Source of the DNA: an uncultured Candidatus Saccharibacteria bacterium
GTDB lineage: Bacteria > Patescibacteriota > Minisyncoccia > UBA6257
Reading direction: 5' to 3'
DNA length: 64,000 nucleotides
NCBI GenBank assembly: GCA_964479005.1
Contig: CAYZJA010000002.1
Location: 1 to 64,000, forward strand
In this document: positions 1,899 to 63,982 of the stretch, piece by piece
Layout: the number at the start of each line of letters is the position of its first letter
Position numbering within the stretch: position 1 is the first letter of the stretch
The notes under the pieces: generated by a model
Databases searched by the model: none
What the model saw: the letters and a program-made list of their open reading frames with translations, nothing else
What the model was told of the DNA's origin: nothing
Program-made: the position numbers and the translations under genes

Positions 1899-4381
1899 AC
1901 TACAAAATTGATGAGTTTGTCTTTAATAAAAATAACTTTTTTTATTTTCTTCTTGCTTAAATATTTTTTTATCAATGAAGAACTTTTTGCTAATTTTTCA
2001 GCTCCTGTTTTATCAACGCCTTTCTTTACTTTTAACTTGGCCCTGATTTTACCATTTATTTGAGCTATTAATATAAAGTTCTTTTCTTCTGTTAAATGGA
2101 ATTTAAAAGTAGGCCATTTTTCCTGTGCAACAGATTTTCGATGTTTTAGATATACATTCCACAACTCCTCAGATAGATGAGGGGCAAATGGGGACAAAAG
2201 CAAAACCAAACTTTCCAAATGTTTCTTATCCACTTTTTCCAAAGGAACCTCATATAACTGATTAACATATTCCATTAAAGAACTAATGGCTGTATTAAAA
2301 TGAAGTTTTTCCAAGTCTTCTGTTACTTTTTTGATGGTTTTATGCCTTGTCTTTTCCAGATTTCTCAAATTCTCTTTTAATTTTCTTTTTGCCTCTGCAG
2401 TCAAAATTAATTTTTTCTTTTCTTTCTTCTTTTTAGATTTTGCACCAATTAATGGATCTTTTTCAGCCACCAAATACCAAACCCGATTAAGAAACCGATA
2501 TATTCCGATAACTCCCTGACTACCCCATGGTTTTGAAAAAGATAAAGGCCCCATAAACATTTCGTACATTCTCAAACTATCAGTTCCATATTTTTTAATA
2601 ATATCATCAGGACTTATTACATTACCCCTTGATTTAGACATCTTTTCTCCGTCTTCACCCAAAATAATGCCTTGATTAATCAAACAAGAAAATGGCTCTA
2701 AAGTAGAAACAACTCCAATATCATAAAGAAATTTATGCCAGAAACGGGCATATAAAAGATGCAAGACCGCATGCTCCACTCCTCCAATATAAATATCAAC
2801 CGGCATCCAGCATTTTTCTTTTTTAATATCAACTAATTTTTTCTTATTCTTTGGATCTAAATAACGCAAAAAATACCATGAAGAGCCTGCCCATTGCGGC
2901 ATTGTATTTACTTCTCTTTTAGCAGGACCTTTACATTTTGGACATTTTACATTTACCCAAGAGGAAATATCCGCTAATGGCGATTCACTCTTTCCACTTG
3001 GTTGATATTTTTTAATTTCAGGCAGTTTTAACGGCAATTCACTCTCCTTTAGAGGCACATTACCGCATTTAGAGCATTTAATTATAGGAATAGGTTCCCC
3101 CCAATATCTCTGACGGGAAAAAATCCAATCTCTTAATTTATAACGGACATTTTTCTTACCTCCAATATAGAGAGCAATTTTTTCCTGGGCTATTTTTGAA
3201 GAAGTACCATTAAACGGCCCGGAATTCATTAATATTCCATCTGATGAAATAACCTCTTTTACTGGCAAACGAAACTGCTCGGCAAATTGAAGGTCCCGTT
3301 CATCATGCGCAGGAACAGCCATTATCGCCCCTGTTCCATAACTCATTAAAACATAGTCAGATACCCAAATCGGCACTCTTTCCCTGTTAGCGGGATTTAT
3401 AGCATACGCTCCAGTAAATACTCCGCTTTTTTCTTTAATTTGAGCTTGCCTTTCAAAATCTGATTTTTGTGAAGCTTGCTCAATATACTTTTTTACTTCA
3501 GAGCTGGAACTTTCTGAAGTAATTTTTTTTATTAAAGGATGCTCTGGCGCTAATACCAAATAAGTAGCCCCAAAAATTGTATCGGTTCTGGTTGTAAAAA
3601 CTTTAATATATTCTTCATGCCCAACAACCTTAAATTCTATATCCACGCCTTCAGAACGGCCAATCCAATTTCTCTGCATTGTTTTTACACGTTCAGGCCA
3701 ATCCAATAGATCCAAATCCTTTAATAATTTATCTGCGTAAGCTGTTATTTTTAAAACCCATTGTTTTAATTTCTTCCTTTCTACTAAAGCACCGCAACGA
3801 TCGCATTTACCTACAACAACTTCTTCATCAGCTAAAACAGTTTTACAAGAAGGACACCAGTTAACAGAAATTTCATCTTCATAAGCTAAGCCGTGTTTAT
3901 AAAGCTGTAAAAATATCCATTGAGTCCATTTATAATAATTAGGATCAGTTGTATTAACTTCTCTCTGCCAATCATAACTAAATCCCATTGCCTGAAGCTG
4001 CTTGCGAAAATATTTAACATTTTTCGCTACTACTTCTTTTGGGTTTTTCTTGGTTTTTATGGCATAATTTTCTGCTGGTAATCCAAAAGCATCCCATCCC
4101 ATTGGGTGTAAAACATCATAACCTTTCATCCGATAATAACGCGACAAAATATCAGAAGCTGTATATCCTTCTATGTGTCCGACATGAAGTCCTTCTCCTG
4201 AAGGATAAGGAAACATATCTAAGATATAGATATGTTTCTTTTTAGGCTTATAAGAACCTTGCTTCGCAAGAACCTTGTTATTCGCCTTTGGCTCATAATC
4301 AGCAGTATGCCAAACTTTATAATTGTTTTTAGCCCAAATATTTTGCCATTTGGGTTCAATTTTATTAGGTTGGTAGGACAT
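1895..4381 (-). CDS. leuS: Leucyl-tRNA synthetase
   Basis: 828 aa with HVGH and KMSKS motifs; PYPSGEGLHVGHIEGYTASD and MGWDAFGLPAENYAIK match class I LeuRS. Confidence 0.95.
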   Translation of the reverse strand: MSYQPNKIEPKWQNIWAKNNYKVWHTADYEPKANNKVLAKQGSYKPKKKHIYILDMFPYPSGEGLHVGHIEGYTASDILSRYYRMKGYDVLHPMGWDAFGLPAENYAIKTKKNPKEVVAKNVKYFRKQLQAMGFSYDWQREVNTTDPNYYKWTQWIFLQLYKHGLAYEDEISVNWCPSCKTVLADEEVVVGKCDRCGALVERKKLKQWVLKITAYADKLLKDLDLLDWPERVKTMQRNWIGRSEGVDIEFKVVGHEEYIKVFTTRTDTIFGATYLVLAPEHPLIKKITSESSSSEVKKYIEQASQKSDFERQAQIKEKSGVFTGAYAINPANRERVPIWVSDYVLMSYGTGAIMAVPAHDERDLQFAEQFRLPVKEVISSDGILMNSGPFNGTSSKIAQEKIALYIGGKKNVRYKLRDWIFSRQRYWGEPIPIIKCSKCGNVPLKESELPLKLPEIKKYQPSGKSESPLADISSWVNVKCPKCKGPAKREVNTMPQWAGSSWYFLRYLDPKNKKKLVDIKKEKCWMPVDIYIGGVEHAVLHLLYARFWHKFLYDIGVVSTLEPFSCLINQGIILGEDGEKMSKSRGNVISPDDIIKKYGTDSLRMYEMFMGPLSFSKPWGSQGVIGIYRFLNRVWYLVAEKDPLIGAKSKKKKEKKKLILTAEAKRKLKENLRNLEKTRHKTIKKVTEDLEKLHFNTAISSLMEYVNQLYEVPLEKVDKKHLESLVLLLSPFAPHLSEELWNVYLKHRKSVAQEKWPTFKFHLTEEKNFILIAQINGKIRAKLKVKKGVDKTGAEKLAKSSSLIKKYLSKKKIKKVIFIKDKLINFVV
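4249..4280 (-). repeat. AGGTTCT direct-repeat element copy, in frame inside leuS
   Basis: ACAAGGTTCTTGCGAAGCAAGGTTCTTAT on the minus strand encodes NKVLAKQGSYK within a lineage-specific insertion in LeuRS. Confidence 0.6.
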
Positions 4382-13434: not shown

Positions 13435-13451
13435 ATGCTTTAATTATTTTT

Positions 13452-13500
13452 GAACGAAGTGAGAAAACAAGGTTCTTGAGCGAAGCGAGAGGTTCTTATT
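13452..13500 (+). repeat. AGGTTCT direct-repeat element copy
   Basis: GAACGAAGTGAGAAAACAAGGTTCTTGAGCGAAGCGAGAGGTTCTTATT. Confidence 0.7.
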
Positions 13501-22579: not shown

Positions 22580-23332
22580 CTAAGAATTTAAAATTTTATC
22601 TAAATTTCCATCTAATACTTCATCAACATTGCCTATCTTTTTACCAGTACGATGGTTTTTTACTAATTTATATGGATGAAGGACATAGGAACGGATCTGA
22701 TTACCCCATTCAATTTTTATTTTTTCGCCCTTTAATTCTTTCAAAGTTTTTACTTTCTGTTTCTCGGCTAATTGATGAAGTTTAGCCCTTAAAACAGTCA
22801 GAGCTTTTTCTTTATTCTTAAACTGCGATCTTCCCTCCTGACAGCCAACAACTATCCCAGTAGGCTTATGGCGTACCCTTACGGCTGTTTCCACTTTTTG
22901 AACATTTTGCCCGCCTGGACCTGAAGAACGAAAAGTTTCAATTTCTAAATCACTTTCTTCTAATGGAAGTTCTTTCGCCTCAATAATCGGCAAAACCTCC
23001 ACCAAAGCAAAAGATGTGTGGCGAAGTTTAGCAGAAGAAAAAGGAGAAATTCTTACTAAACGATGCACACCATTCTCATTTTTTAAAATTCTATAAACAT
23101 CATCTCCATTTATCTCTACAACAGCATTCTTAATGCCGCCATATTCATTTTCTCTCTTGTCTAATAATGAAAATCTCCAATTTTTTCTCTCTGAATATTT
23201 CTGATACATCTTTAAAAGCATCAATGCCCAATCTTCGGCATCTTGACCACCAGCGCCAGCATATACAGAAAGTGTTATATTATTTCCTCTAGGCATCTTG
23301 AGAATTTTACCAAATTTAGGCCTAAAAAACAA
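22580..23332 (-). CDS. prfB: Peptide chain release factor 2 lacking N-terminal domain 1
   Basis: SPF (RISPFSS) and GGQ (SGPGGQNVQKVETAVR) motifs; aligns to RF2 domains 2-4 from AGAGGQDAEDW onward. Track start is a TTG; likely ATG at 23296. Only 23 nt separate it from the pcm stop. Confidence 0.85.
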   Translation of the reverse strand: MFFRPKFGKILKMPRGNNITLSVYAGAGGQDAEDWALMLLKMYQKYSERKNWRFSLLDKRENEYGGIKNAVVEINGDDVYRILKNENGVHRLVRISPFSSAKLRHTSFALVEVLPIIEAKELPLEESDLEIETFRSSGPGGQNVQKVETAVRVRHKPTGIVVGCQEGRSQFKNKEKALTVLRAKLHQLAEKQKVKTLKELKGEKIKIEWGNQIRSYVLHPYKLVKNHRTGKKIGNVDEVLDGNLDKILNS

Positions 23333-24693: not shown

Positions 24694-24710
24694 AAGGTTC
24701 TACGAACCTT
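24694..24710. promoter_or_regulatory. Perfect inverted repeat AAGGTTC-tac-GAACCTT upstream of the 24105..24656 gene
   Basis: Palindromic version of the AGGTTCT motif seen in the dispersed element family. Confidence 0.3.
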
Positions 24711-24718
24711 AATTAACT

Positions 24719-24746
24719 TAAAATGTCCTATTATTAGGACATTTTA
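24719..24746. terminator. Bidirectional terminator
   Basis: AAAATGTCCTA-ttat-TAGGACATTTT, 10-bp stem. Confidence 0.55.
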
Positions 24747-28339: not shown

Positions 28340-29386
28340 ATGAAATTAGAAAAATTAGAAAAAGAAAAAGAAAATCTTTTTAAGAAACTCGGTAATCCTG
28401 AGTTTCTTTCAAATAAAAAGAATTTTGAAGAAGCTTCCCGTAAATTGAAAAAGATTGAAAGTGAGATAAATTTTCTTAAAATACTCGCAAAAACAGAGAA
28501 AAAGATAAAAGAAGCTGAAGAAATTTTAGTTGAGGCAACTGATGATGAACTTTTGTCTTTGGCAGAAGAAGATTTAAAAAAGAATAAACAATTAAAAGAA
28601 AAAATTTTAGCAGAAAAGGCGAAAAAATTGGAAGAAAACAATGATACATCTGAAATTAAAGGCATCATGGTGGAGATTAGGGCTGGAACTGGAGGAGAAG
28701 AAGCGGCATTATTCGCTCATGACTTATTCAGAATGTATAATCGATATGCTGAAAACAAAGGATGGCCAATTAAAATTATTAATATGAATAAAACGGCATT
28801 AGATGGTTTAAAAGAAGGAGTAATGGAAATAAATAATAAAGAAGCTTTTGAAAACCTAAAATACGAAGCTGGTGTGCATCGAGTTCAAAGAATACCATTT
28901 ACTGAAAAATCTGGACGTATTCACACTTCTACAGCAACGGTAGCTATTCTTCCTCAAGTAAAAAATGTAAAGATAGAAATCAAGGCAGAGGATTTAGAAG
29001 AAACATTTTTCCGTTCTTCAGGTCCAGGCGGACAAAACGTCCAAAAAGTAGAAACAGCAGTGCGTATTGTGCACAAACCTACAGGCATAGTAGTTACCTG
29101 CCAAAGCGAAAGACAGCAAAAACAAAACAGAGAAAAAGCTTTAGAATTCCTAAAAAATAAAGTTTTTAATAAAAAGCAAGGAGAAGCGATAGGAAAAACA
29201 GAAAAAGAAAGACGCGACCAAATAGGTCGCGCCGAGAGATCAGAAAAAATTCGTACTTATAATTTTCCACAGGATCGTATCACTGATCATCGTATTAAAA
29301 AATCCTGGCATAATATTGAACAAGTCCTCAATGGGAATTTAGATGAAATAATTAGAGATATTAAAAAGGAATATCATCAGGAATAA
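28340..29386 (+). CDS. prfA: Peptide chain release factor 1 (full length, domain 1 present)
   Basis: PxT-type motif (RIPFTE) and GGQ; 348 aa. Confidence 0.95.
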   Translation: MKLEKLEKEKENLFKKLGNPEFLSNKKNFEEASRKLKKIESEINFLKILAKTEKKIKEAEEILVEATDDELLSLAEEDLKKNKQLKEKILAEKAKKLEENNDTSEIKGIMVEIRAGTGGEEAALFAHDLFRMYNRYAENKGWPIKIINMNKTALDGLKEGVMEINNKEAFENLKYEAGVHRVQRIPFTEKSGRIHTSTATVAILPQVKNVKIEIKAEDLEETFFRSSGPGGQNVQKVETAVRIVHKPTGIVVTCQSERQQKQNREKALEFLKNKVFNKKQGEAIGKTEKERRDQIGRAERSEKIRTYNFPQDRITDHRIKKSWHNIEQVLNGNLDEIIRDIKKEYHQE

Positions 29387-31397: not shown

Positions 31398-31430
31398 AAA
31401 GAACCTGCTCGCTCTGCTCGCAGAACCTTG
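31398..31430 (-). repeat. AGGTTCT direct-repeat element copy immediately upstream of recA
   Basis: Minus strand CAAGGTTCTGCGAGCAGAGCGAGCAGGTTCTTT. Confidence 0.6.
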
Positions 31431-31522
31431 AAATTAAAATATTCTATTTTAATTATAAGCTATATTAACAGTTCTAAAAAGATATCGCAACTCAAAAATT
31501 ATTTATAACTGCTCATATTCAA

Positions 31523-35088: not shown

Positions 35089-36630
35089 TTAACGGCTGGC
35101 TAATTCTTTAAGATAAGAAATATCCCTTTCATACCTATCAGCTATCGCCAGTACATTATCTCCGTAAAAACGATAACGTGTATTTGTGGATCCAGAAAAA
35201 TAAATCATCGCCGCGCGCCACTCTGCATCCCTTGTTTGTTTAGCTGCCCCCCATCTGGATAAATATAAAGCAGCGGCAACAAAAGCATCTCTAATATCCC
35301 AAGGATTAGCAGGATTATTACCTGTGATTTTACTCACCTTATCTTTGTAAATCATCCATGTTGAGGGGATAAATTGAGCCGGACCCATTGCTCCGCCCCA
35401 ACCAACCTGTTTTCCACTTCTAAACATTGGGCAGGAGACAGGAGTTGTGTTAGGATCTAATCCCAATTCCCTGCAAACTTGTAAAAATGGTTGTTGATCC
35501 CTGCTTGGTTTCATTATCTCTCTCCAGCTTTTACTCGGAGGATCCCCAGGACGGTTACAAGTTCCTACATTCTGTCCTAAATTAGATTCCTGAGTCAAAA
35601 TTGCTAAAAGAAAAGCTGGCCTTACTCCAGTACGACTACTTACCCAATTGGCTATTTCCAATGCTTCACCAAAAGTAACTTGAGTTTTTACCCCAATTAA
35701 CTGATAAATACGCGCTCTAATCTCATTCGCTTTTTGCCTTGATTCAGACAACATTTGCTGATACTTATCTTCGTTTCCATCAGTAATATGCCAAAGATCA
35801 ACTTTTTCACTCTCTGTTCTATTTAAATCATTTTTCTGGAGCAACTGCATTGCTAATAAGTTTTGAGTTTCATCCTTGTCACTGCTTAATTCTTGATTTT
35901 GCTTATTTAAAGTTAGCTTTAAGGCTTCAAGCTCTTCAATACTTTCTTGAATCCTTTCCTGAATATTATTAAGAGCATTGGAATAATCAAAAAACTCGCT
36001 TATTGTCCCTGACCCCAACAGTATTTCTAAGAGCGACACCTGCTTTAATTGATAAAAAGATTGTAAAGAATTTGTTAAATTTTCTTTTGTTGCCCCTACT
36101 TTATCAATAGTTTTAATAATAGAAGTTGTCGTTTCATCAATTCTTACATCAAGATATTGCAAATTGAGATTGGTAGATTTGATTTGAAGGCTTAATTTTG
36201 ACGCCCTGCTTCTTAATTCATTAATTTTATTTTGAAGGGTCTGCTTTTCCTGTTTTGTCGTAACTATTAATTTTTCATATTCGGCTATTTCTTTTTCAAC
36301 TGATGCTAACTCTTCCTCTAATTTAGCCCGCTCTTCATCATATAGAGCTTCTGCTTCTTTTGATTGAAAAAAGATTGGCGCTGTTACGCTGGATTGAATA
36401 ATGGAAAAAAGAAAAAAAGAAAAAATTAATAACGAAACAAATCTTTGTCTTGTTATTTTCGAACGAAGTGAAAAAACAAGGTTCTGCGGACAGAGTGCGC
36501 AGGTTCTTATTTTTTTCCCTTTAGAAAAAAAGGGTGGAATAAATATTTTTCTCTTGTTTTCTACAATTTCTTTTTTAAAAGGAAAGGAAATATCTTTAAC
36601 CTTCTTTCTAGAAATAGACTTAATAACCAT
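35089..36630 (-). CDS. Membrane-anchored coiled-coil protein with C-terminal MltB/Slt35-like lytic transglycosylase domain
   Basis: TM helix, about 250 aa of coiled coil, then C-terminal ILTQESNLG ... GAMGPAQFIPSTW (the G.MQF.PSTW family motif). Confidence 0.65.
   Translation of the reverse strand: MVIKSISRKKVKDISFPFKKEIVENKRKIFIPPFFSKGKKIRTCALCPQNLVFSLRSKITRQRFVSLLIFSFFLFSIIQSSVTAPIFFQSKEAEALYDEERAKLEEELASVEKEIAEYEKLIVTTKQEKQTLQNKINELRSRASKLSLQIKSTNLNLQYLDVRIDETTTSIIKTIDKVGATKENLTNSLQSFYQLKQVSLLEILLGSGTISEFFDYSNALNNIQERIQESIEELEALKLTLNKQNQELSSDKDETQNLLAMQLLQKNDLNRTESEKVDLWHITDGNEDKYQQMLSESRQKANEIRARIYQLIGVKTQVTFGEALEIANWVSSRTGVRPAFLLAILTQESNLGQNVGTCNRPGDPPSKSWREIMKPSRDQQPFLQVCRELGLDPNTTPVSCPMFRSGKQVGWGGAMGPAQFIPSTWMIYKDKVSKITGNNPANPWDIRDAFVAAALYLSRWGAAKQTRDAEWRAAMIYFSGSTNTRYRFYGDNVLAIADRYERDISYLKELASR
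36461..36512 (+). repeat. AGGTTCT direct-repeat element copy, antisense within the N-terminal coding region of the 35089..36630 gene
   Basis: GAACGAAGTGAAAAAACAAGGTTCTGCGGACAGAGTGCGCAGGTTCTTATT. Confidence 0.7.
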
Positions 36631-58938: not shown

Positions 58939-59235
58939 TCATCCAATTTTATAAAAAATTTTATTAATTTTCACTTTGGGAATTCTCTTTTTAAGATAAG
59001 CTCTTAATTGCGGTTCCTCTAATCGTAATTCTGATGAAATAACTGCCCTACAACACTTAATTGTTAATATCCCCTGTTTTAAAGAACTGACCCTGACTAT
59101 ATCCAAGGACCAGTTTTTTCTTTTTTTAAAATATTGGTTGATTACGTTAATTGCTTCCTGCCCCTGAAAAAAACTTTTAAATCTTTTGGTGTTTGACCAA
59201 CTGTTTAGTGCTTGTTTGATTGATATAAAAGCCAT
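58939..59235 (-). CDS. DUF721/DciA-like small protein downstream of dnaN
   Basis: GILTIKCCRAVISSELRLEEPQLRAYL...VKINKIFYKIG fits the DUF721 pattern (G.L.V.V.SsawA.eL....l...L...IRFrvG); position matches conserved synteny. Confidence 0.45.
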   Translation of the reverse strand: MAFISIKQALNSWSNTKRFKSFFQGQEAINVINQYFKKRKNWSLDIVRVSSLKQGILTIKCCRAVISSELRLEEPQLRAYLKKRIPKVKINKIFYKIG

Positions 59236-59250
59236 AAGACAAAATACTAT

Positions 59251-59310
59251 GTCAAATTTTAATTGGCATTAAAATATAGCGTCAAATTTTAATTGGCATT
59301 AAAATATAGG
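59251..59310. repeat. Tandem 30-bp direct duplication (29/30 identical) spanning the dnaN stop
   Basis: GTCAAATTTTAATTGGCATTAAAATATAG[C/G] twice; the second copy encodes the dnaN C-terminus ..MPIKI*. Confidence 0.8.
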
Positions 59311-60418
59311 AAAAGCTATCATCAGATTTCCCATGAATCAAGCCGGGATTAATTTCTTTATTTAATTTAATAATAATTTCATCTTCTTTAATTGAATGCA
59401 ATCCATCTAATAAGAAATGATAATTAAAACTAATCTTTAATGGATTTCCACTTATATCTTCGGGGGTAAGAACTGTATGGCTTTTCCCCAAAGAAGGGTC
59501 TTGAGCCTCAATAACAATTTCCTTTTTCGATGAATTAAAATCAAACATAACGTCATTTATCCTCCCGCTAAATAAGCCAATAATTTTAACGGCCTCAATT
59601 AATTTCTTTCTATTTAAAATTGTCTGATTTTCAAAATTAGACGGAATTATTGAAGAATATTTTGGGTATTCAGCATTAATAAGCCTGGATATTAAGCGAA
59701 CATTATTTAATGAAAACTGAATTTGATTAGGTTCTGGAAAAATCTTTACTACACTACTAACTTCCTCCATCTCTTCTTGAATAATTCTTAGAACTTCTTG
59801 CGCTGTTCTTAATGGAATTATTATTTCTAAATTATCTTTTATATTAGTTTTAATTTTTTGGGATAAAATATTCTTTTCTGCCAAACGGAAACTATCAGTG
59901 CCAACTAATTTTAAAACGCTTTTTGAAGTATCGTTTTCTAATTTGAATAAAATACCATTCAATTCTGGTTTTGGAGAAGTATAACCAACACTCGGAATTA
60001 CTTGTTCTAATGCTTCTTCAAGGTCCTTTTTTTCTATTTCTATATATCTTTCTGTTTTTGTTTCTGGAATAATTGGAAATTCATCGGGATTTATTCCTTG
60101 AAAGGTCGTATTATAATTCCCACTTTTTACTGATAGAATATTTTTACTTTCTTCAATTGTAATTTTTTCTTCTGATAAATTATTCAAAAACATAGAAAAA
60201 GTTTTTGCTGGAATGATAAATTTTCCTTCTTTTTCCACTTTTCCTGTGATGATTAATTCAATTCCAATTTCCAAATCAGTGGCCAAAAGATGGAGCTTAT
60301 TTTTATTTGTTTTTAAAAGGATATTACTCAAAATAGGGAGTGTAAGATTTTTCCCTGTAATTTTTTCTGCTAAATTAATAGATTTTTTAAAATTATCGAC
60401 TAAAGTGATAAATTTCAT
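59282..60418 (-). CDS. dnaN: DNA polymerase III beta sliding clamp
   Basis: Three-domain clamp, 378 aa, immediately downstream of dnaA. Confidence 0.9.
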   Translation of the reverse strand: MKFITLVDNFKKSINLAEKITGKNLTLPILSNILLKTNKNKLHLLATDLEIGIELIITGKVEKEGKFIIPAKTFSMFLNNLSEEKITIEESKNILSVKSGNYNTTFQGINPDEFPIIPETKTERYIEIEKKDLEEALEQVIPSVGYTSPKPELNGILFKLENDTSKSVLKLVGTDSFRLAEKNILSQKIKTNIKDNLEIIIPLRTAQEVLRIIQEEMEEVSSVVKIFPEPNQIQFSLNNVRLISRLINAEYPKYSSIIPSNFENQTILNRKKLIEAVKIIGLFSGRINDVMFDFNSSKKEIVIEAQDPSLGKSHTVLTPEDISGNPLKISFNYHFLLDGLHSIKEDEIIIKLNKEINPGLIHGKSDDSFSYILMPIKI

Positions 60419-60672
60419 ATTTTTATACTAATTATTATTTATATATTATATATATTAATATGTTATTATAATTAAGGACGGATATTTTGTGCATAAATGA
60501 TTTTTTAAAGGTAGTATTGGTTATTAATGATTCTTTAAATGGATAACTAGTGAATAATTAATGAATAATTTGGAGAAAACATGGGGATAGTAATTTAATT
60601 TTCGATTTTTAATTTTCAATTCTCAATTTTATCAAGTGTTTACACCTTATTTTATCAACAATATATCCACCA
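60419..60672. other. oriC part 1: AT-rich unwinding region plus DnaA-box-like sites between dnaA and dnaN
   Basis: AT-only stretch 60421..60475; boxes TGTGcATAA, TTATCaACA, aTATCCACc, tGGATAA. Confidence 0.55.
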
Positions 60673-62055
60673 TCATTTATTATACAACATTTCTTTCAAA
60701 ATTGTTATTTCCTGACAAAAAACAGGGTTTTTTTCAATTTCAGAAGATATCTTTTTATATGCATGAATAACGGTGGTATGGTCACGATTACCTAATTTTT
60801 CAGCAATACTGGTATAGGAATAATGCAACTCTTCGCGCAAAAGATACATTACTATTTGCCTTGGTTTTACTAATTCTTTCTTCCTAGAACGACCCAAAAC
60901 ATCGTCTTCTTTAAGGTCATAGAAAGAAACTATTTTTTTAATCACTTCTTTTGGTGAAATATATTTATTTGATTTATTTAAAATGAGTGACAATATTCTT
61001 TTGGTTTCTTCTAAAGAGATTGGACTATTTTTAAGGCGCGCATGCGCGATGACTCTGTTTAATGCTCCCTCTAATTCCCTGATATTCTTTGGGATTGCCT
61101 CAGCTATATACTTAAGAACATCATTGTTTATAAGATGGGATACATCCTGACTTTTGTTTTCTAAAATAGCTAATCTTGTTTCAAAATCAGGATAACCAAT
61201 ATCAGCTATCATACCCCCTTCAAATCTAGACCTTAACCGTTCCTCAATAGACGGAATAGATTTTGGCGGGCGATCAGAGGTAAAAACAATTTGTTTATCT
61301 TTTTCATAGAGCGTATTAAACGTATGGAAAAGTTCTTCTTGTGTTTTATCTTTTCCGGCGACAAACTGGACATCGTCAATTAAAAGAAGATCAAGATTTC
61401 GGAAACTTTTTTTAAACTCTGTCATTTTTTGATTACGGATAGCATTAACTAAATCATCTGTAAATTTTTCCGAGGTAGCGTATAAAATTTTCAATTTCTT
61501 TTTTTTTCTCTTTAGTTCATTACCAATAGCTTGTAGAAGATGTGTTTTTCCTAATCCAACGCCGCCATAGATAAAAAGAGGATTATATTTTTTTCCTAGA
61601 TTTTCTATTACTGCCAAAGATGCTGCATTAGCTAATTCATTATTGGTTCCGACAACAAAGTTTTCAAAAAGGTATTTTGGATTAAGATTAGTTTCAGGGT
61701 CAATATTAAATTCTAATTGTTCATCTAAAACTGACGATTTTGAAATAGTTGAAGAACGTTTTGTTTTTTTAGTCTCTATTTTTTTTAAAGAATCTTTATT
61801 AGTAGTAACCAGATATTCAATCTTTTTAATTTTAGGATTTAAGCTAAAAAGAGCGTGTAGAATTTGTTTATGGTATTTATTTTCAAGCCATTCTTTTGTA
61901 AAACTAGATGGGACACCTATAAAGACCGTTCCTTCTTTAATATCTAAAATAAAAGCATCTTTTAACCATGTTAGGTAATTAGCTTTAGAAATATTCAATT
62001 TAATCTCTCCCAAAGCTGCTTCCCAAAGTTCTTTGATATCCATAATTGAAATCAC
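60673..62055 (-). CDS. dnaA: Chromosomal replication initiator DnaA
   Basis: AAA+ Walker A GGVGLGKTHLL and C-terminal DnaA-box-binding HTH. Confidence 0.95.
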   Translation of the reverse strand: MISIMDIKELWEAALGEIKLNISKANYLTWLKDAFILDIKEGTVFIGVPSSFTKEWLENKYHKQILHALFSLNPKIKKIEYLVTTNKDSLKKIETKKTKRSSTISKSSVLDEQLEFNIDPETNLNPKYLFENFVVGTNNELANAASLAVIENLGKKYNPLFIYGGVGLGKTHLLQAIGNELKRKKKKLKILYATSEKFTDDLVNAIRNQKMTEFKKSFRNLDLLLIDDVQFVAGKDKTQEELFHTFNTLYEKDKQIVFTSDRPPKSIPSIEERLRSRFEGGMIADIGYPDFETRLAILENKSQDVSHLINNDVLKYIAEAIPKNIRELEGALNRVIAHARLKNSPISLEETKRILSLILNKSNKYISPKEVIKKIVSFYDLKEDDVLGRSRKKELVKPRQIVMYLLREELHYSYTSIAEKLGNRDHTTVIHAYKKISSEIEKNPVFCQEITILKEMLYNK

Positions 62056-62261
62056 AATATTTACATTCTATAGTATAACAACCTTTCGTTTTACTCAAGA
62101 ACGTTGAAATTGAAATGTACGCATTTCCATTATAAAAATAAAATTTAGTTTCTGCAAGAAAATCATTCTCTTTTGGGGATAAACTGTTGATAATCAGTGG
62201 GTTTGATATTTAACGTATATTTTGGTATGCTGTTCTAGATTTAAATTTAATATTTATTGCT
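62056..62261. other. oriC part 2 / dnaA-rpmH divergent promoter region with DnaA boxes
   Basis: TGgGGATAA and TGTtGATAA boxes (8/9 each) at about 62175..62194. Confidence 0.5.
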
Positions 62262-62396
62262 ATGTCGATTACTTATCAGCCAAAAAAGAAAAAGAGATCA
62301 CGCGCCCATGGATTTTTAAAAAGAATGTCTTCTAAGGGAGGAAAAAAAGTTATTAGTCAACGGAGGCAAAAAGGAAGAAAAAAATTAACTCCTTAA
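62262..62396 (+). CDS. rpmH: Ribosomal protein L34
   Basis: Own translation [44 protein letters not shown] (44 aa); below the ORF-track cutoff. Confidence 0.85.
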
Positions 62397-62399
62397 GTA

Positions 62400-62735
62400 A
62401 TGCTTAAAAAGAAAAACAGAATTACATCTTCTGTTGCTTTTAAAGAGATTTTTACTAAAGGTAATGTAAAAGAAAACGAGTGTTTTAAAATTATCTTCAA
62501 AAAGAGTGATTTAGACTATCCGAGGTATGGAATTATTGTTAAGGCTCAAAATAGTAAGTCAGCTGTACAAAGGAATGCTTTAAAAAGAAGAATTAGAGAT
62601 ATACTTAGAAATTCTTTGTTGGTTTTTCCAAAAGGATTTGATGTTGTGATTGTTACGAAGAGAAATTGTTTAAATATGAATTTCTCAAAGCTGAAAGAAT
62701 CTCTTGGTGAATTATTATTAAAACTATTTAAATAA
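62400..62735 (+). CDS. rnpA: RNase P protein component
   Basis: Basic RnpA motif ALKRRIRD; sits between rpmH and yidC. Confidence 0.85.
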   Translation: MLKKKNRITSSVAFKEIFTKGNVKENECFKIIFKKSDLDYPRYGIIVKAQNSKSAVQRNALKRRIRDILRNSLLVFPKGFDVVIVTKRNCLNMNFSKLKESLGELLLKLFK

Positions 62736-62741
62736 ATTATT

Positions 62742-63434
62742 ATGAATGTTTTTGAATTATTGATTTTTCAACCGCTATATAATCTTTTAGCCTTACTCTC
62801 CAATCTAACAATGGGTGATTTAGGGTGGGCTGTTTTAATTTTGGCGGCAATAATTCGTTTTATTATTTGGCCTTGGTATAAAAAAGCCATGGGGGATCAA
62901 AGAAAAATGGCAAAATTACAGCCGAAAATTAAAGAAATTCAAAAGAAGTTTAAGAAGGAACCAATAAAGGCCAATCAGGAAGTAATGAAAATTTTTAAGG
63001 AAGAAAAAATCAATCCTGGCAATTCTTTCTTTTTTATCATTTTCCAATTGGCTATTTTTATTTCCCTTTATATATTTTTTAGGCAAGCCATAGTCAATGA
63101 TTGGGCTCCTTATCTTTATAGCTTTGTTAAATTGCCAGAACAAATAAATTATTTATTCCTTGGCATTATTGATCTTAAAGCTCCAAGCCTTGCTCTCGCG
63201 ATTATTTCAGCTTGCTTGAACTCCTTTTTGACTTTTATCCAACCAAGTTCAGGCCAGAACAAAGCAATGTTACTTGGCTTCCCTTTTATAATTTTATTTT
63301 TCTACCAGAGATTTCCCGCGATTGTTATTTTGTATTGGATAGGATTTACTTTAGTAAATCTTTTGCAGGAATATATGACTAAGAAAGAAACCATTCTCCC
63401 AAATCAAGCATCGGAAGTAAAGGCTATCAGTTAA
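62742..63434 (+). CDS. yidC: Membrane protein insertase YidC/Oxa1 (short form)
   Basis: Five-TM YidC core; IRFIIWPWYKK motif. Confidence 0.85.
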   Translation: MNVFELLIFQPLYNLLALLSNLTMGDLGWAVLILAAIIRFIIWPWYKKAMGDQRKMAKLQPKIKEIQKKFKKEPIKANQEVMKIFKEEKINPGNSFFFIIFQLAIFISLYIFFRQAIVNDWAPYLYSFVKLPEQINYLFLGIIDLKAPSLALAIISACLNSFLTFIQPSSGQNKAMLLGFPFIILFFYQRFPAIVILYWIGFTLVNLLQEYMTKKETILPNQASEVKAIS

Positions 63435-63460
63435 TTTTGAGCAAAGCCACGTTTAACGTG

Positions 63461-63508
63461 GCAAAGTGAGAAACAAGGTTCTGTGAACAAAGTAAACAGG
63501 TTCTTATT
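63461..63508 (+). repeat. AGGTTCT direct-repeat element copy ending at the jag ATG
   Basis: GCAAAGTGAGAAACAAGGTTCTGTGAACAAAGTAAACAGGTTCTTATT, preceded by the palindrome GCCACGTTTAACGTGGC. Confidence 0.7.
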
Positions 63509-63982
63509 ATGGAAACATTAAAGGTAAAATCTTTTTTAGAAGAATTGCTTACAATTGTTGGTTTTGTAAATTTTGAGATTAGTACACAAGAAAGTCCCCA
63601 GGACAAACTTGTTCAGTTTTCAATTAAAACTGATTCAGAAATTAATTATAGTGGTCTTTTGATAGGACGTGATGGAGAAAACCTGCAAGCATTAGAATAT
63701 TTATTAAATATCTTTTCAAAAAAATACTCCAATGATTATCCTTGGAGAATTATTTTAGATATTAATAATTATCGGGCAATACAGGAAGAAAAATTAAGAG
63801 AATTTGCTAAAAAAGCGGCTCGTCACGTATCTTTATCAAAAAAAGAAATAGAATTACCGCCCATGAGGGCGCGAGATAGAAGAATTATCCATTTAGAGAT
63901 TGCTTTAAGAAGTGATGTATTCACAGAAAGTGTTGGGGAAAGGAAAGAGAGGCATATTATAATAAAACCGCAAGAAAAATAG
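63509..63982 (+). CDS. jag: Jag/KhpB-like KH plus R3H RNA-binding protein
   Basis: KH (LLIGRDGENLQALEYL) and R3H (MRARDRRIIHLEIA) motifs. Confidence 0.85.
   Translation: METLKVKSFLEELLTIVGFVNFEISTQESPQDKLVQFSIKTDSEINYSGLLIGRDGENLQALEYLLNIFSKKYSNDYPWRIILDINNYRAIQEEKLREFAKKAARHVSLSKKEIELPPMRARDRRIIHLEIALRSDVFTESVGERKERHIIIKPQEK

Follow-up and report, generated by a model that had tools for sequence, protein, structure and literature searches.

A two-hairpin repeat of about 50 nt with paired AGGTTCT arms, probably a non-autonomous mobile element, in Patescibacteria and gut Clostridia

The stretch of DNA analysed here, which we call the window, comprises 64,000 nucleotides from an uncultured Candidatus Saccharibacteria bacterium (contig CAYZJA010000002.1 of assembly GCA_964479005.1, positions 1 to 64,000), and our subject is a short dispersed repeat built on pairs of the 7-mer AGGTTCT, one copy of which, between rplK and gatB, had been flagged in a previous inspection of the letters alone (hereafter, the sequence-only reading). 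The window has a G+C content of 32%, carries most of its genes on the minus strand and encodes a set of housekeeping functions (leuS, gatB, rplK, nusG, recA, ftsK, dnaE, dnaA, dnaN, yidC and jag) together with a DUF5667 protein. The nearest relatives of its proteins are labelled Pacebacteria, Paceibacterota or Patescibacteria, and the replication origin was placed near 62 kb by GC skew and dnaA.

The 7-mer alone occurs 20 times in the window, where 7.6 occurrences are expected, and the pattern AGGTTCT-N(8-30)-AGGTTCT gives five matches against 0.01 expected from 100 dinucleotide shuffles. The repeat is thus beyond chance, as the sequence-only reading had maintained, and the five copies described there are all present where it had placed them. 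A covariance model, R1, was built from 60 units of other genomes and contains none of the window sequences; with it, the five copies were recovered at E values between 3.6e-11 and 6.5e-3, and a sixth, degenerate one was detected as well, which gives three copies on each strand. The copies, the parts of the flagged unit and a palindrome made of the same 7-mer are as follows.

13444..13499, plus strand: flagged complete unit, between rplK and gatB, antisense to both (R1 58.7 bits, E = 3.6e-11)
13444-13446, plus strand: presumed insertion-point TTA of the flagged unit, counted within the unit
13449..13465, plus strand: hairpin A of the flagged copy, TTT-GA-AC-GAA-GT-GA-GAA
13469..13476, plus strand: 5' core arm, AAGGTTCT, invariant in 5/6 window copies
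13477..13489, plus strand: hairpin B insert, TGAGCGAAGCGAG (T-GA-GC-GAA-GC-GA-G), the variable part
13490..13497, plus strand: 3' core arm, AGGTTCTT, able to pair with the 5' arm
4250..4297, minus strand: complete 48-nt unit in leuS, in frame and sense (R1 56.3 bits, E = 1.3e-10)
31398..31455, minus strand: 58-nt unit upstream of recA, sense (R1 matches the hairpin B part, E = 0.0065)
36456..36509, plus strand: 54-nt unit in the lytic transglycosylase gene, in frame and antisense (R1 56.1 bits)
62072..62139, minus strand: degenerate sixth copy upstream of dnaA, with core CAACGTTCT...AGGTTGTT (R1 32.4 bits, E = 4.4e-5)
63449..63507, plus strand: unit between yidC and jag, sense, stopping 1 nt before the jag ATG (R1 38.4 bits, E = 1.7e-6)
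24694..24710, no strand assigned: perfect intergenic palindrome AAGGTTC-TAC-GAACCTT, built from the core 7-mer (no R1 match)

The positions of the copies had been read correctly at the outset, but not their lengths, since the leuS and recA copies extend over 48 and 58 nt, respectively; moreover, the recA copy, described as abutting the start of the gene, stops 26 nt before the ATG. The left flank GAACGAAGTGAG common to the copies at 13452 and 36461 is real. However, neither this flank nor the spacer between the two 7-mers is mere surroundings, as each of them is a hairpin that belongs to the unit.

A complete unit measures 46-62 nt and has two different hairpins, which on one strand follow the order hairpin A, a linker (usually AAC), the arm AAGGTTCT, hairpin B and the arm AGGTTCTT, with A or AT at the terminus. 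Hairpin A, located directly 5' of the core, is variable and commonly has the form N3/4-GA-stem-GNA loop-stem-GA-N3/4, for example TTAY-GA-GC-loop-GC-GA-RTAA. In the flagged copy a GAA triloop caps an inner 2-bp stem, which a tandem G.A/A.G separates from an outer stem of 3 bp; the recA unit has an AT-rich form, AATTAAAATA-GAA-TATTTTAATT, and is complete once this form is recognised. The jag unit has its hairpin A partly replaced or truncated beside a hairpin GCCACGT-TTA-ACGTGGC. Hairpin B is a variable hairpin of 9-18 nt, almost always perfect, between the two AGGTTCT arms. In 132 distinct units of the matches listed, its stems are mostly of 3-6 bp and its loops are mainly GAA (47), GCA (16) and GTA (7), with a predominance of GNA triloops closed by C-G. 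The spacing of the 7-mers therefore varies because the spacer is a hairpin of variable length. The two arms can pair as A-T, A-T, G-C, G.T, T x T, T.G, C-G and T-A, and the stem formed in this way would be two-fold symmetric, given that both of its strands are identical when read 5' to 3'.

This architecture is supported by the minimum-free-energy fold of the consensus, which is the two-hairpin structure including the arm-arm helix, and by the covariation analysis proposed in the sequence-only reading. Over the 60 aligned units from other genomes, standard pairs occupy 94% of the cells, and 126 cells show double changes, compared with 37 in shuffles and 8-32 when the partners were slid; the hairpin A pairs 10-27, 11-26, 14-22 and 15-21 all have double changes. 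The arms themselves are unable to show covariation because the search pattern fixed their sequence. Among secondary copies, which were not selected by the pattern, 12 have the 16-nt core without any change and about 4 carry one or two mismatches. Furthermore, the sense strand folds more stably than its complement in 116/128 units with RNA parameters and in 95/128 with DNA parameters.

Some related structures deserve mention. In the variant of locus L129 the 3' arm is fully complementary, and positions 2214-2270 of that locus hold a fully palindromic core derivative beside a family-type hairpin A. The palindrome at 24694-24710 of the window, presented earlier as a relative of the repeat, exists as a sequence but is not matched by the family model; it may possibly be a relative, its membership being uncertain, and it adjoins a second, terminator-like hairpin (about 24720-24746). 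An Oceanispirochaeta contig (L049, 4113-5040) has four copies in 900 nt inside a local repeat of about 105 nt, and there the hairpin B stems present compensatory changes (CTGAGC..GCTCAG, TCGAGC..GCTCGA and TCAAGC..GCTTGA). The copies at 62072-62139 and 63449-63507 of the window are both found in the neighbourhood of the origin (58939-63982), where the sign of the GC skew flips and where DciA, dnaN and dnaA are encoded on the minus strand and rnpA, yidC and jag on the plus strand.

The comparison of orthologous loci, also proposed beforehand, revealed presence/absence polymorphism in close relatives, which backs the earlier suggestion of a miniature mobile or recombinogenic repeat. The LeuS of the window has 16 extra residues that are missing in all 17 aligned homologues, including one that is 94% identical; the unit in its gene translates to YEPKANNKVLAKQGSY, and the DNA alignment shows a clean 48-nt insertion with the empty site CCTGAT^AATCCT. 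For the transglycosylase, the N-terminus MVIKSISRKK is conserved among homologues, so the antisense element lies within real coding sequence. Here the inserted unit translates to RTCALCPQNLVFSLRSKI, and the placement of its boundary can shift by 6 nt (TATTTT). This peptide or variants of it are found in homologues of 512-515 residues, and those of 495 residues, at 82-88% identity, lack exactly those 18 residues. P0121-P0124 and P0132 have the insertion, P0125, P0127, P0128, P0131 and P0133 do not, and a syntenic DNA alignment sets the 54-nt block against an empty site in L122; orthologues that are 88-91% identical thus differ in whether they carry it. Orthologue alignments thus uphold both the in-frame leuS copy and the antisense copy in the N-terminal coding region of the transglycosylase gene, as they had been read at first. 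In addition, a hairpin CCCTTT-AGAAAA-AAAGGG at 36516-36540, in the 5' coding part of the transglycosylase gene, adjoins the inserted element and is kept in relatives with and without it.

Upstream of recA, the 58-nt block is found only in the window and is missing from the syntenic relatives L122 and L123, whose empty site reads GCTTA^GAAT. L123 has instead a different, antisense copy about 60 nt further upstream of recA, which is absent from the window and from L122. A 52-nt copy in the L31-S2 intergenic region is private to L123, and a weaker private copy was observed elsewhere in L144. The jag unit shares its hairpin B, GTGAACAAAGTAAAC, with a copy at a different locus in L123, and identical 50-mers also occur at non-homologous loci of different genomes.

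A further case is offered by Clostridia, in which tRNA-Arg(CCU) genes are broken in the D arm by one to five tandem units, always antisense to the tRNA. Locus L040 (160-940) contains one intact tRNA-Arg(CCU) gene and two that are complete except for a 50-nt insertion; tandem tRNA-Arg(CCU) genes with one or two split copies are also present in L015, L041, L099, L104, L114 and L070. Beside the intact gene the interrupted one decays, and in several genomes only a 20-40-nt 5' fragment of it is left. A riboswitch in a 5' untranslated region was considered for the Clostridia arrays and rejected: their right flank ATCCATTTAACTAAGGAGGC, which looked like a Shine-Dalgarno sequence, is the reverse complement of the 5' part of tRNA-Arg(CCU), and the array therefore sits inside a tRNA gene.

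The resolved junctions show clean block insertion at new sites, and since genomes with 88-94% identity in neighbouring proteins differ in where their copies lie, insertion of the element is recent and ongoing. Each of the five resolved junctions is compatible with entry directly 3' of T(T/G)A, ahead of a T or G: ATTA^T (a tRNA gene), CTGA^T (leuS), GTTA^T (the transglycosylase gene), CTTA^T (between L31 and S2) and CTTA^G (upstream of recA), the last one being free of any boundary ambiguity. The possible target duplication amounts to 0, 2, 4, 4 and 6 nt over these junctions and is thus inconsistent. Terminal inverted repeats are absent: the 5' end (TTAYGAG / TTTCGAAC) does not match TAAGAACC, which is the 3' terminus in reverse complement. 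At its 3' end the element reads CTTA (once CTTT, in the recA unit), and a logo over 106 units of the matches listed gives TTA upstream at 70-76% and T after ...GGTTCTTA at 99%. The element recreates TTA^T at both junctions, which provides a simple account of the direct tandem arrays.

Once inserted, copies can decay, yet the core resists. Comparison of the transglycosylase insertion in four orthologous copies gives 0/16 variable sites for the core and 5/15 for hairpin B, not all of them compensated; in a fifth lineage the insertion is truncated, and in two lineages hairpin B decays without compensation. Inside genes the element persists only where its length is divisible by three, and translation then adds a peptide of 16-18 residues. 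Within open reading frames (ORFs), 11/13 copies of the matches listed are in sense orientation. Other intra-ORF copies in Patescibacteria-like contigs (L087 3810-3837, L066 6520-6547 and L002 1472-1497), one of them in an RsmG-like methyltransferase gene, are probably further in-frame coding insertions.

The search for the repeat beyond the window, which the sequence-only reading had called for, used one genome per GTDB species and the exact 21-base pattern AACAAGGTTCT-N(9-16)-AGGTTCTTAT, and found the AGGTTCT pair in at least 119 contigs. In the matches listed, the carriers are mostly gut Clostridia (Acutalibacteraceae, Ruminococcaceae and relatives) and many classes of Patescibacteria, with a minor presence in a few Desantisbacteria, one spirochaete and some metagenome-assembled genomes (MAGs) labelled Gammaproteobacteria; the census across phyla is biased by the exact pattern used, and the taxonomic labels of some carrier MAGs are doubtful. 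The only archaeal record, a 2.6-kb contig labelled Candidatus Pacearchaeota (L007), has ORFs with bacterial type IV prepilin N-termini (GFTLIE) and is probably a misbinned fragment of Patescibacteria, not archaeal DNA, so we do not count it as archaeal presence. A phage origin was discarded with a single match in IMG/VR and none in the GenBank phage collection. Carriage by plasmids was likewise rejected, the plasmid hits being marginal partial matches of the GAGCGAAGCGAG hairpin module in Acinetobacter plasmids without the core. One of these plasmids (NZ_CP094543.1; L142, 400-450, upstream of repM) has the adjacent modules CGAGCGAAGCGAG / TGAGCGAAGCGAAT, with a GA-GC-GAA-GC-GA hairpin like hairpin A and without the AAGGTTCT core; these modules occur in six Acinetobacter plasmids. 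Tandem arrays are frequent in the matches listed, as direct repeats with a period of 46-66 nt, and no inverted doublets were seen among them.

With regard to placement, 147/160 copies of the matches listed lie outside long ORFs, and the copies are oriented at random with respect to the genes beside them: again among the matches listed, 30 are antisense and 26 sense, 10 stand between convergent genes and 6 between divergent ones. All-against-all clustering of 2354 ORFs from 120 loci showed no gene family recurring beside the element; only housekeeping clusters appeared, the largest in 8 loci. Scans against Rfam 15 gave no match to the element at the gathering score (window and 15 loci) nor at E <= 10 (a four-unit array), and detected only tRNAs and an FMN riboswitch elsewhere, which removes a known RNA family from the candidates. 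No description of the element, by sequence or by concept, was found in the open-access literature either, in agreement with the earlier statement that no described family matches. Other candidates were tried and set aside. Hammerhead ribozyme, K-turn or box C/D, CsrA site, T-arm mimic and LexA box misfit the core positions; a secondary insertion of hairpin B with AGGTTCT as target duplication finds no solo AACAAGGTTCTTAT forms; and as to a longer autonomous version, a subfamily with an extended left part still measures about 62 nt and nothing longer was present in the loci.

Taken together, we consider the AGGTTCT pairs to form the core of a mobile DNA element of 46-62 nt, non-coding and non-autonomous, and we assign this reading a probability of about 0.8. 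The element would be recognised in folded single-stranded form. On folding, the two identical arms would meet at the base of hairpin B, whatever the length of that hairpin, in a mismatched stem with two-fold symmetry. Recognition of this kind is suggested because the arm spacing follows the hairpin length, the sense strand folds better and C-GNA-G triloops predominate. Hairpins of the d(GCGAAGC) class are exceptionally stable in DNA, and the surplus of C-GNA-G triloops and Y-GA-R tandem mismatches is in keeping with such stable DNA hairpins. The recogniser may be a trans-acting, structure-specific enzyme, for which the nearest model would be an HUH-type single-strand transposase (TnpA of IS200/IS605, or the RAYT protein that acts on repetitive extragenic palindromic (REP) sequences), and a circle or tandem junction of units would read AGGTTCTTA|TTAYGAG.

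Several observations weigh against this interpretation. The window encodes no transposase or recombinase domain besides RuvC, RecA and FtsK, and over about 1 Mb surrounding the copies a crude motif scan turned up no ORF resembling a Y1 transposase. The strong replication-strand bias of IS608 and ISDra2 is not seen here, as the GC skew on the element strand is positive at 49 loci and negative at 46. With about 50 nt, the unit falls below the length of every known pair of IS200/IS605 ends that is functional. The target preference is based on five resolved junctions only, one of which is TGA and not TTA, and one element ends in CTTT and not in CTTA. Furthermore, hairpin B differs greatly among copies of one genome while the 16-nt core stays intact, and an intact core could mean that selection acts in place for a function of the host, and not simply that selfish copies decay; with a core that resists decay, an in-place function or an RNA role may still be entertained.

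The units could alternatively specify a structured RNA (a small RNA, ribozyme-like or protein-binding) that spread via an RNA intermediate or is kept for a cellular role. Covarying stems around an invariant core resemble functional RNA; G.U wobbles, GNRA or GNA loops and tandem G.A pairs are confined to one strand, which is also the more stable one with RNA parameters in 116/128 units; the core is kept in place while the stems drift; and the local paralogues of the spirochaete contig present compensatory changes (TCGAGC..GCTCGA versus TCAAGC..GCTTGA). However, this sits poorly with a 50-nt unit without an obvious promoter and with random orientation to the flanking transcription, since about half of the copies would need a promoter of their own. 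GNA triloops are far commoner than GNRA tetraloops, no Rfam family matched, a sense copy within the essential leuS mRNA speaks against self-cleavage, and the ORF clustering of the 120 loci showed no association with reverse transcriptase. We regard an RNA element as unlikely, although it is the strongest of the alternatives.

A domesticated, REP-like punctuation, maintained by selection as sites for a host protein such as gyrase, a nucleoid protein or a resolvase, or as structural signals in mRNA or DNA, and with mobility only in its history, would agree with the strongly intergenic placement (147/160 of the matches listed), with the density of copies in a reduced genome of about 0.55 Mb (6 in 64 kb) and with an invariant core in unselected copies, and the two-fold-symmetric arm stem might suit a dimeric protein. 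This is improbable in view of the different copy positions in genomes 88-94% identical in neighbouring proteins, of the copies in leuS, the transglycosylase gene and tRNA genes, which are hard to see as useful, and of the transglycosylase copy, whose hairpin B decays uncompensated in two lineages and which is truncated in one. The sequence-only reading had also suggested, from a half-site spacing of about two helical turns, a double-stranded operator whose two AGGTTCT boxes would be bound by a direct-repeat regulator of recA, jag and other genes. GTTC-containing direct repeats are LexA boxes in some phyla, and two copies do stand just upstream of start codons in the orientation of the gene (recA and jag). 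Nevertheless, a double-stranded operator of fixed phase is incompatible with the box spacing of 9-18 nt over the family; the spacer forms a covarying hairpin; copies occur in antisense, within genes and in tRNA genes; and the random orientation is accompanied by no recurring neighbour family and no regulon-like gene association. Moreover, the recA copy is missing in two close relatives that keep the same promoter region, and both the recA- and jag-upstream copies are lineage-specific insertions, not conserved promoter sequence. A regulatory operator is therefore highly improbable.

Among known systems, the element is akin to small, non-autonomous, structured dispersed repeats; it is similar in some respects to, but lacks defining features of, REP sequences, IS200/IS605-derived PATEs, Rickettsia palindromic elements (RPEs) and attC sites. 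As with REPs and the bacterial interspersed mosaic elements (BIMEs) made of them, the copies are short, numerous and mostly extragenic, read on one strand, without terminal inverted repeats or a coding gene, and a conserved single-stranded flank stands beside a covarying hairpin. However, REPs consist of a 5' GTAG/GGAG and one imperfect palindrome in 20-40 nt, whereas here there are two hairpins and AAGGTTCT...AGGTTCTT, with identical arms on both sides of the second hairpin; BIMEs and REPINs are inverted pairs, and our units form direct tandems. REPs are specific to one RAYT and one lineage, while a single 16-nt core is found here in Patescibacteria and Clostridia. The element makes clear block insertions in coding sequences and tRNA genes, unlike REPs, and a RAYT gene, their usual partner and commonly flanked by REPs, was seen neither in the window nor by the motif scan over some 1 Mb of loci.

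Like the IS200/IS605 family and PATEs, the element has neither terminal inverted repeats nor target-site duplication in five empty/filled comparisons, and it bears sub-terminal hairpins at both ends, both covarying, with hairpin B 9-10 nt from the right end. IS200/IS605 elements insert 3' of a specific tetra- or pentanucleotide, to which T(T/G)A^ at five junctions, a small sample, may be compared. The differences are that the two hairpins are unlike each other, that the left one begins right at the junction, that an orientation bias relative to replication, towards the lagging-strand template, is absent (49 versus 46) and that no TnpA was found near the copies. RPEs are also selfish, translated in-frame insertions that affect essential genes, as occurs here with 16 residues in leuS and 18 in the transglycosylase; they measure 100-150 bp, are restricted to Rickettsia and have no similarity to the 46-62-nt unit, a separation made by size, no RPE sequence having been compared. 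Classical miniature inverted-repeat transposable elements (Correia, ERIC, BOX and RUP) are similarly small, non-autonomous, dispersed and polymorphic among strains, but the terminal inverted repeats and fixed target-site duplications associated with DDE transposases are absent from our element. Integron attC sites are recognised as a folded single strand, as would be the case here, and share the short conserved foot with a variable terminal hairpin. In contrast to them, the element has no RYYYAAC / GTTRRRY boxes, cassette ORFs or integrase context, its neighbours are unrelated housekeeping genes and its arms are far shorter.

The arrays of TIGR-Tas systems were a further candidate, as they are present in Patescibacteria and consist of tandem units, each with two short conserved segments and two variable ones in alternation. 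The units of TIGR arrays measure 36 nt; edge repeats and loop repeats of 8-12 nt take turns in them, the 9-nt spacers are non-palindromic and the repeats end in UG...CCA. These arrays adjoin a tas gene and are processed into guide RNAs (PMC12045711). We rejected this assignment, given that the period here is 46-66 nt, the variable parts are self-complementary hairpins, most copies are solitary and dispersed, and no tas-like neighbour recurs.

Apart from the element, the window has a release-factor ORF at 22580-23332 (minus strand; 250 residues) that begins at position 100 of the PCRF profile, pointing either to a split gene or to an RF2 gene with its usual programmed +1 frameshift; another release-factor gene, of full length, is located at 28340-29386.

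What kind of mobile element this is can be stated only tentatively. It may be a previously undescribed, ultra-small element of about 50 nt, recognisable by its structure and by a 16-nt core with identical arms that pair in a two-fold-symmetric G.T / T.T / T.G stem; it would add peptides to essential proteins and split tRNA genes in bacteria whose genomes are among the smallest, moved by an enzyme new to transposition or by a housekeeping enzyme common to Patescibacteria and gut Clostridia; we judge this possible, with the odds somewhat against it, and there is a real chance that the chemistry of its mobilisation is new. In practical terms, the element is a strain-level marker, since its insertions differ between genomes about 90% identical in flanking genes; it creates short in-frame insertions and pseudo-tRNA genes that are liable to misannotation, and it is a likely cause of breaks in metagenome assemblies. 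A near-invariant core combined with free stems offers a sharp handle on the recognising enzyme, and maybe on a new structure-specific DNA or RNA activity. If the proposal is true, the element would be among the shortest mobile elements known in prokaryotes, active in the streamlined Patescibacteria, which are thought to be poor in transposons, and common to them and the distant gut Clostridia.

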